A stretch of DNA of 6,539 nt from a virus (taxonomy: Duplodnaviria > Heunggongvirae > Uroviricota > Caudoviricetes): positions 1 through 6,539 of IMG/VR virus record IMGVR_UViG_2690316002_000006. One strand, 5' to 3'. Positions 4,811 to 6,539 of this stretch are shown one piece after another. The translations under genes were made by a program, and so were the position numbers. Each line of letters opens with the position of its first letter. Within the stretch, counting starts at the first letter, position 1. A model generated the notes under the pieces. That model was not told the DNA's origin. It was given only the letters and a program-made list of their open reading frames with translations, and searched no databases.

Positions 4811-5155
4811 TCAGGCCAGCGGTGGAGTCTTCAGAGAACCAGTAATTATTCCCGGTAGTTTTCCTCTGTAGGTTATCAACACATCCTGCGCCTCTAAAAT
4901 GATGGGCCGCTTTTCCGGCAACGGACCATCCCCTTCACATAACCCGGCAGCAACATCCATGAAAAACTGCTTCGCCTGCTTTTTCGCCTCCGCTTCGTAA
5001 AACTCCAGCGTGGCACCTTCAGTACGGTCAAGACTAATCGCCACATTTGGCAACAACAGTGACGGATACCCACCAATTTCCAGTGCCACAGTAACAGTAA
5101 TCTTATCCGGGTAATTATTTATCCCTTTAACAACCAGTTCGTATTTTTTCTTCAT
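4811..5155 (-). CDS. Hypothetical 114-aa protein inserted between holin and endolysin
   Basis: ATG at 5155 lies 4 nt after the holin stop, with GGGGAGAG Shine-Dalgarno inside the holin 3' end. Soluble-looking, no signal peptide or TM segment. Same position as ydfR in the K-12 Qin prophage (from memory); function unknown. Confidence 0.6.
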   Translation of the reverse strand: MKKKYELVVKGINNYPDKITVTVALEIGGYPSLLLPNVAISLDRTEGATLEFYEAEAKKQAKQFFMDVAAGLCEGDGPLPEKRPIILEAQDVLITYRGKLPGIITGSLKTPPLA

Positions 5156-5159
5156 CGCT

Positions 5160-5366
5160 TTACTCTCCCCGCGCCGCCTTACGCTTATCTTCTTTAATCT
5201 TGAAATAAAGGTTAGTCAGATACGTCAGCAGGCCAAACAGCAGACTCCCCAGCACACCGATTGCCACCCACTGGGACGGAGAGACTTTGTCCAGCAGCTG
5301 CAGTAACCAGTATCCCGTCCCCACCGCTGACGTGGTGTATGACACACCCGTTGTGATTTTTTCCAT
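5160..5366 (-). CDS. Phage-21-type pinholin (class II holin)
   Basis: From ATG at 5366: [68 protein letters not shown], near-collinear with S21/EssQ (two TM segments, charged C-terminus ...KAARGE). The ORF-track version (to 5435, GTG start) adds 23 residues of doubtful reality. Confidence 0.8.
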
Positions 5367-5621
5367 CTGATGTATGTCTCCGTCACCGCCGACAGAAAAT
5401 GAAAGTAAAGGAAAACAAAAAGCCGCCAGTGTCACCCACTGACGGCCAACTCCGGGAGCCGTGATTATGGCATTCAGGCTCTGCTAAAAATGCCAGATAA
5501 CATTCCGACCAACCCCTGATTCAGGTTATAAATGACACAATATCTTGACAACATCCGTCACTGTCTGTCAGAAAATGTACTGCCAAATATAAGTATCATG
5601 TGAAGTACATCTACCCGTTTT

Positions 5622-5660
5622 AGCCAGCGTCCTTCAGAGTGGGCGCTGGCTTTTTTTATT
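5622..5660 (+). terminator. Plus-strand intrinsic terminator abutting the 3' end of the upstream minus-strand gene
   Basis: AGCCAGCGUCC (5622..5632) - 8-nt loop - GGGCGCUGGCU (5641..5651), an 11-bp stem with one G-U pair, followed by TTTTTT(A)TT on the plus strand. On the minus strand the hairpin is followed by AAAACGGG, so it is not a minus-strand terminator. Confidence 0.5.
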
Positions 5661-6195
5661 ATGCTGCCGGTGCATTTATCTCCAGCATCAGACTTTCTAT
5701 CTCAACGCCATACGCTGCATTTTTTGTAACATCCGTCAGCGTCAGCGCATTCAGTCCCAGTGTCAGACTGTCTTTTATAACCTGGAATGCCGGGCCAGCC
5801 ACTCCATTCAGTTTCGGAGTAACCGTGGCACTGCCGGCGGTGAACACCAGCTCCAGCGTCTGCCAGTCGTTACCGTAATCGCCGAACTCCCCCAGCTTCG
5901 TGTTTCCGGCTTTCCTGTGATGCATCAGATTCACTCTGCCGTCAGTGGTCTGAGTGAAGTACGACATCAGGAACGGATTACCGGTACCCGTCATCGCCAC
6001 ACCATCAGGAACGGGAGCATCCGTATACAGATAAATCCCCAGCCCGAACTGATTGTTGGTCAGTGCGCCTGACAGGCGGAACTTACAGGTCAGTCTGCCG
6101 CCCTGTGTCAGCAGGGTAATTGCGTCATCCACCGGATGCGTCAGGGACCAGGTTTTATTGCTCTGCTTGGTGATCTTAAATACACCATCTGACAA
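5659..6195 (-). CDS. 3' part of a cargo ORF upstream of the lysis cassette (possibly lectin-like; hypothetical)
   Basis: Protein-like translation (...GWSIKDGGIQLSDGVFKITKQSNKTWSLTHPVDD...GVEIESLMLEINAPAA) in a frame that stays open upstream to a stop at 6250..6252 with no ATG or GTG in between; the ORF-track start is a TTG. Probably the C-terminal portion of a larger, frame-interrupted gene. Confidence 0.5.
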   Translation of the reverse strand: MSDGVFKITKQSNKTWSLTHPVDDAITLLTQGGRLTCKFRLSGALTNNQFGLGIYLYTDAPVPDGVAMTGTGNPFLMSYFTQTTDGRVNLMHHRKAGNTKLGEFGDYGNDWQTLELVFTAGSATVTPKLNGVAGPAFQVIKDSLTLGLNALTLTDVTKNAAYGVEIESLMLEINAPAA

Positions 6196-6539
6196 CTGAA
6201 TTCCGCCATCCTTAATGCTCCAGCCCTGCGCAGCAGAATTTCCGGTGCCTTACCACTGATGAAGGCTGAGGTGCGCCCGGCTGCGTTCAGAATAGCGGTT
6301 GCCAGACGATCCGGAATAATGCTCCTGCGCGCCCATGAACTGAAATGTGTCGGGCGGTTTGATGATACCTGGTTTCCATTCGTTCTCGATGCCGCACCGT
6401 AATATCCTGATGCCGGAATATCCGGATCTTCTGCCGGCGCGTTAGTGGCGGTATTGACGCCGTTACCGTCTGTCATGAAGGGCACAAAATAAACGCCCTC
6501 ACTCTCCCTGTTTTTATACCCGCCGTACACGGTGTCGTA
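6141..6539 (-). CDS. Upstream portion of the same cargo gene, in a different frame (open to the window edge)
   Basis: Frame open from the window edge: DTVYGGYKNRESEGVYFVPFMTDGNGVNTATNAPAEDPDIPASGYYGAASRTNGNQV...AILNAAGRTSAFISGK... The last roughly 30 codons (R-rich, overlapping the downstream frame) look non-native, consistent with a frame switch near 6250. Confidence 0.4.
   Translation of the reverse strand, partial: YDTVYGGYKNRESEGVYFVPFMTDGNGVNTATNAPAEDPDIPASGYYGAASRTNGNQVSSNRPTHFSSWARRSIIPDRLATAILNAAGRTSAFISGKAPEILLRRAGALRMAEFSCQMVYLRSPSRAIKPGP

Follow-up and report, generated by a model that had tools for sequence, protein, structure and literature searches.

What does a strong terminator terminate when it faces against the genes around it? 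The window (the whole stretch of 6,539 nucleotides analysed here) has such a site in the gap between a cargo gene and the holin. The initial annotation had offered three readings for it: the end of a small regulatory RNA that converges on the cargo gene, the end of a message for a micro-protein, or a barrier against read-through from the lysis cassette. The hairpin at 5622-5657 is the terminator of the small RNA gene pasC. Judged by its identity to the published copy, the plus-strand stretch 5580-5657 is very probably pasC itself, an independently transcribed, Hfq-dependent base-pairing sRNA of ~78 nt, found in lambdoid prophages of pathogenic E. coli. The features of the locus are collected in Table 1.

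Table 1 Features of the pasC locus and its neighbourhood, with positions in the window.
Feature	Position	Strand	Details and basis
Class II (P21 S-type) holin, 68 aa	5160-5366	-	Pfam PF04971 Phage_holin_2_1, E = 1.2e-32
Terminator-like hairpin, 11 pairs, then UUUUGUUUUC	5421-5447	-	~55 nt upstream of the holin ATG
Weaker terminator-like hairpin, 6 pairs, then AUUUUUAGCA	5492-5509	-	Terminator scan
23-codon ORF, judged non-coding, overlapping the pasC promoter and the RNA 5' end	5532-5603	+	Translation, variants
Putative sigma-70 promoter of pasC	5545-5574	+	Comparison of variants
Parts of the putative promoter	5545-5550; 5566-5568; 5569-5574	+	-35 TTGACA; 18-bp spacer ending in TGT (extended -10); weak -10 CAGAAA
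pasC small RNA gene, 78 nt (very probable), single-base variant of E2348/69 PasC	5580-5657	+	77/78 identity
PasC intrinsic terminator	5622-5657	+	Terminator scan, fold, variant comparison
Terminator arms AGCCAGCGTCC and GGGCGCTGGCT, loop of 8 nt	5622-5632; 5641-5651	+	Window sequence
Putative PasC seed GCCAGCGUCC	5623-5632	+	By position from the PasA seed GCCAGCACCU; identical in E2348/69 PasC
SASA/NanS-p-type esterase, 3' part (DUF6645 region), convergent with pasC, stop at 5659-5661	5659-6236	-	

Late region and the gap upstream of the holin

The window corresponds to the late region of a lambdoid E. coli prophage, and its genes lie on the minus strand: in order of decreasing coordinates, the 3' part of the esterase gene, the gap, the holin, DUF1327/YdfR, a phage lysozyme and a KilAC antirepressor, followed by Rz, an HNH endonuclease and the small terminase subunit. 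The nearest complete genome (97.4% identity) has Q, a tRNA, TerB, DUF3927, the esterase, the gap, the holin, YdfR and the lysozyme. A 61-aa ORF at 1502-1687, on the plus strand, corresponds to a YlcI/YnfO family protein gene in the annotation of the nearest genome; few genes of this otherwise minus-strand region are oriented that way.

The holin has the same length as the holins of phage 434 and E2348/69, and its GGAG ribosome-binding site was read by eye at ~5375-5378. The gap of 292 bp described initially holds only with the ATG at 5366 as the holin start, which gives the 68 aa; the GTG at 5435, given by the ORF finder, is not the holin start.

Lambdoid lysis genes are read from the Q-dependent late promoter, and the Q-modified late transcript reads through terminators. 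The gap had been expected to carry also the signals driving holin expression. The promoter scan gave no minus-strand promoter-like site in the gap, which on this strand has the GGAG site and two terminator-like hairpins, and the lysis genes are located downstream of Q. We conclude that holin expression needs no promoter in the 292-bp gap. The hairpin closer to the holin is an annotated terminator in the phage 434 record and was invariant among the aligned relatives. Together with the weaker hairpin at 5492-5509, it may keep the transcription of the cargo gene out of the lysis genes when there is no Q antitermination.

Compared with phage 434 and with intact genes of 1851 nt, the esterase (5659-6539, minus strand) has an 88-bp deletion at 6236/6237. 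The resulting frameshift puts the DUF6645 C-terminal part (5659-6195) and the upstream ORF at 6141-6530 in different frames. The esterase cargo gene is probably a pseudogene in the window.

Terminator at the esterase stop codon

The terminator scan found 15 terminator-like sites in the window, versus 7.0 ± 2.6 in shuffled sequences. The plus-strand site at 5622-5651 ranked first, which agrees with its initial description as the cleanest terminator of the window, oriented for plus-strand transcription, with an 11-bp stem and a T-run. Eight of the 11 pairs are G-C and the tail is TTTTTTATTA. The T-run comprises 7 T at 5651-5657, with the last stem base included. The overlap with the stop codon of the minus-strand cargo gene is real, being formed by the ATTA tail only, while the T-run ends 1 nt before the TAA stop.

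The G + C-rich stem, short loop and U-run of a Rho-independent terminator were found on the plus strand and not on the minus strand. What follows it on the latter strand is AAAACGGG instead of a U-run, which makes the terminator one-directional, and the terminator scan of the window listed no minus-strand terminator site at this hairpin. A barrier against read-through from the lysis cassette does not fit the orientation of the locus, as transcription of the cassette, on the minus strand, runs away from the terminator. The hairpin and its U-run are likely the Hfq-binding 3' module of PasC.

Identification of the predicted plus-strand RNA as PasC

PasC (E2348CN_0005) is an Hfq-dependent sRNA of EPEC O127:H6 E2348/69 (Pearl Mizrahi et al. 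2021, Sci Adv, PMC8550237), a strain in which five prophage sRNAs were discovered by RIL-seq and confirmed by northern blotting. Its reported length is ~79 nt, with a 5' end (window position 5580) derived from read coverage and band size. In E2348/69, PasC was higher under virulence-activating growth, without deliberate prophage induction. Its stability depended on Hfq, and the transcript was lower in the hfq mutant (log2FC -2.13, padj 0.015). With ~31 Hfq-bound RNA partners, PasC ranked 17 by interaction number, and the pair with the rne 5' leader (rne5::pasC) had 51 chimeras (PMC8550237). In the synteny given by Zhu, Shabalina and Storz 2026 (bioRxiv 10.64898/2026.05.13.724894), pasA and pasC each sit immediately between the gene for the sialic-acid esterase and the operon of holin and lysozyme.

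Using the PasC coordinates from Table S6 of Pearl Mizrahi et al. 2021 (PMC8550237), we compared NC_011601.1 1290909..1290832 (minus strand) with 5580-5657 of the window (plus strand), and 77 of the 78 bases were identical. The published PasC northern probe, CGCTGGCTAAAACGGGTAGATGTAC, was the exact reverse complement of 5605-5629 (a single match, with 0 expected by chance). The stretch 5519-5586, promoter included, was identical in the window and in E2348/69. The lone difference in the RNA is at position 8, with an A in the window (5587) and a G in E2348/69, and falls within a hypervariable dinucleotide. The 77/78 identity, the exact probe match and the identical upstream stretch indicate that the feature is a copy of pasC. 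The small plus-strand regulatory RNA predicted initially, ending at about 5655 and converging on the cargo gene, therefore corresponds to a published sRNA. Three traits of the PasA-PasC family were found at the locus: the sequence, the position between esterase and holin, convergent with the esterase, and the terminator.

Copies of 5500-5665 at 100% identity are present in several complete E. coli genomes. The gap region matched many Stx-converting and 434-like phages, with the best phage match to NC_049952 (97.1%), the example phage for pasC in Zhu, Shabalina and Storz 2026. At this locus pasC is already known, as it has been published, validated by northern blotting and surveyed across ~1,360 genomes, and our identification adds little to what is published.

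A cmscan search of the whole window against 4227 Rfam families gave no match at E <= 1, and membership in AgvB, AsxR or STnc100 was dropped. In RefSeq (PGAP), no feature is annotated in the gap between esterase and holin of the nearest complete genome. With neither a PGAP feature nor a matching Rfam 15 model, automated pipelines can miss pasC.

Putative promoter of pasC

Transcription of pasC probably proceeds from a TTGACA box combined with an extended -10 (TGT-CAGAAA), with the start at ~5580. The arrangement TTGACA-N15-TGT-N6 was found in 98 of 99 related loci, including the divergent locus from E. albertii (L005), and the same layout was recognized by eye in the second unit of phage 434. 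The consensus promoter scan reported no promoter for pasC. Since the 5' end at 5580 was derived for E2348/69, from read coverage and the size of the band, the promoter assignment could be wrong, and the primary plus-strand transcript may be longer than 5580-5657.

An internal promoter (CTGTCA, 17 nt, TATAAG), which would give an RNA of 58 nt, was not adopted, the reported RNA being of 79 nt. Readings of the CTGTCTGTCAG block as a LexA box or a similar operator, made by eye, did not fit.

Fold, variants and distribution

The 78-nt RNA ending at the T-run folded with -24 kcal/mol (z = -3.16), and 1 of 200 shuffled sequences folded equally well. The RNA forms a small hairpin in its 5' part, besides the terminator hairpin with its U-run. 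The PasA seed overlaps the 5' arm of the terminator (supplementary Fig. S5, PMC8550237), and the PasC seed was inferred from it in the supplement of Zhu et al. (bioRxiv 10.64898/2026.05.13.724894).

Phage records, IMG/VR and E. albertii supplied the 99 related loci, of which 44 are PasC-type with a single unit, 54 are PasA-type and one, L005, is a third variant. The base of the stem, AGCC-GC/GCTGGCT, was common to all the variants folded. The terminator hairpin was kept through paired changes, from G-C to A-U in PasA, from G.U to A-U in locus L011, and from G-C to C-G in L005.

Positions 5586-5587 (RNA positions 7-8) are hypervariable, with AA, AG or GA in PasC-type loci and TA in PasA-type loci. 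The 60 bp upstream of this dinucleotide are invariant among near-identical copies. L005 (E. albertii NBRC 107761, ~1560-1760) has a PasC-like body, but a different terminator stem, AGCCGGCCCC/GGGGCTGGCT, with a loop of 15 nt. Its 5' end has diverged and its downstream flank resembles that of PasA. Such a mixture suggests mosaic recombination between sRNA genes of this kind.

In the PasA-type loci examined, those of phage 434 (L001, ~2540-2689) and of E2348/69 (L099), a second unit comes after the first terminator. This unit has a homologous promoter-like block, TTGACA-N15-TGT-GAAAAA, and its own terminator beside the esterase stop. It has been published only as a 236-nt minor read-through form of PasA, and could be an independent tandem sRNA gene.

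The full PasC-type stretch was found in 208 of 5426 complete E. coli genomes, and a PasA- or PasC-type match in 692 of them. From 185,579 species representatives, only E. albertii gave matches. This Escherichia-confined distribution agrees with the published restriction of pasA and pasC to Escherichia and Shigella.

Proposed function and alternative readings

In the reading that we favor, pasC fills part of the gap that separates the esterase cargo gene from the holin, opposing the late operon. It would be transcribed from the TTGACA at 5545-5550 and the extended -10, starting at ~5580, and by its sequence it ends at the 11-bp hairpin and U-run, 1 nt before the esterase stop. PasC would then pair with its targets via the seed GCCAGCGUCC, a stretch that overlaps the terminator's 5' arm, by analogy with PasA.

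Two other readings give the site another function or a further one, and both are very improbable. One assigns the hairpin mainly to the minus strand, where it would be a 3' stability element or a bidirectional esterase terminator, with no functional plus-strand RNA. The hairpin does abut the esterase stop codon, and its minus-strand form folds at about -20 kcal/mol. However, the minus strand lacks a U-run after the hairpin, the RIL-seq esterase reads run ~130 nt past the stop, through the hairpin, and in E2348/69 northern blotting showed a plus-strand RNA that ends at this site. The other, to which we assign an equally small chance, is a dual-function locus, in which the 23-codon ORF encodes a micro-protein from a longer plus-strand transcript with the same terminator. 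The ORF translates exactly as annotated initially (MTQYLDNIRHCLSENVLPNISIM, then a stop), was open in 97 of the 99 related loci and has an AGG 6 nt before its ATG. PasA, moreover, may be processed at its 5' end from a longer precursor (Zhu et al., bioRxiv 10.64898/2026.05.13.724894). For an ORF of 72 nt, staying open is nevertheless expected by chance at such low divergence. Its ATG (5532) is upstream of both the conserved TTGACA (5545-5550) and the reported PasC 5' end (5580), thus outside the RNA as reported, and the promoter scan gave no plus-strand promoter-like site at 4900-5532. Conservation of the protein was not seen either: across the 99 loci, at least 8 of 9 substitutions in the ORF change the amino acid (N/S/D/Y at codon 19, I/R, I/N, C/Y, L/P, I/T and N/I) and one is synonymous. 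In E. albertii L005 the frame reads ATG CTC ATA ATA TAT TGA and is closed after five codons, whereas the promoter blocks are retained, as is the RNA body. The proposed micro-protein is thus not supported, and the ORF is most likely a by-product of the promoter region.

A third reading keeps the small RNA and moves its main role into cis: PasC, or the transcription of pasC, would act on the overlapping late-strand RNA, made up of the esterase 3'UTR and the late transcript ahead of the holin, through antisense pairing or transcriptional interference, and this RNA would in turn sponge PasA, PasB and PasC. We consider it unlikely, though less so than the two readings above. In the published RIL-seq tables (PMC8550237), an Hfq-bound late-strand RNA, NC_011601 1290785-1290960, extends from the 3' end of the esterase and is antisense to pasC (5517-5705 on the minus strand of the window corresponds to 1290785-1290972 on the plus strand). 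It formed 668 chimeras with PasA and 54 with PasB. As it crosses pasC in the RIL-seq reads, the hairpin does not stop late-strand transcription. As expected for antisense sequences, PasC is perfectly complementary to this gap RNA, and PasA strongly so (duplex of -82 kcal/mol, z = -10.6). The predicted duplex was weak for PasB and the gap RNA (z about -2), and not significant for the 3' coding end of the esterase (z -1.4 to -1.7). Full-length duplexfold pairings are unrealistic, so no target claim is based on these predictions. Short, convergent, Hfq-bound sRNA genes beside late-region cargo genes, at the moron position, are also a recurrent layout in lambdoid prophages (Tree et al. 2014, PMC4104026). 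Against a main role in cis, PasC formed chimeras with unlinked core-genome RNAs such as rne5, a trans-acting behaviour, and the chimeras between PasA and the esterase are put down by the authors, in the part of PMC8550237 dealing with them, to a short site in the coding region, CUGGUGCUGGA. A cis action of PasC is, besides, compatible with the main reading as a base-pairing sRNA. That the gap is a two-strand RNA switch, in which the late-strand RNA pairs with PasC, PasA and PasB, is similarly doubtful. The pairing strand would be the esterase 3'UTR in lysogens and, once the prophage is induced, the Q-antiterminated late transcript. In such a switch, transcription of the cargo gene or of the late region would titrate PasA, PasB and PasC, or PasC would alter the processing just upstream of the holin, and with it the timing of lysis.

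Comparison with known systems

The closest system is PasC of E2348/69, which shares with the window 77 of 78 bases, the terminator, the putative seed, the 60 bp upstream, and the position and orientation relative to the esterase and the class II holin. In E2348/69 two IS elements lie between pasC and the holin, unlike in the window, and in the window the esterase gene is frameshifted.

PasA (EcOnc51 and EcOnc52 in EHEC Sakai) has a homologous promoter region and 5' body and occupies the same locus, in phage 434, YYZ-2008 and Stx1a phages. The terminator base AGCCAGC/GCTGGCT is also shared. The distal stem and loop of PasA, by contrast, are unlike those of the window, and its 5' part shows several changes. 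PasA is also followed by a further unit of ~155 bp, which has promoter-like and terminator sequences of its own and is missing from the window.

AgvB (RF02702) and AsxR (RF02703), prophage anti-sRNAs from EHEC (PMC4104026), resemble the pasC element in being short, with an intrinsic terminator, and in their place within the Q-dependent late region of lambdoid prophages, where they lie downstream of cargo genes and converge on them; both are Hfq-bound. In contrast to PasC, they are 51-60 nt long and have a common 42-nt 3' region, and the window gave no match to either Rfam model at E <= 1. On these grounds, the pasC element is not a member of the AgvB/AsxR class, but would work like it in its placement and its binding of Hfq.
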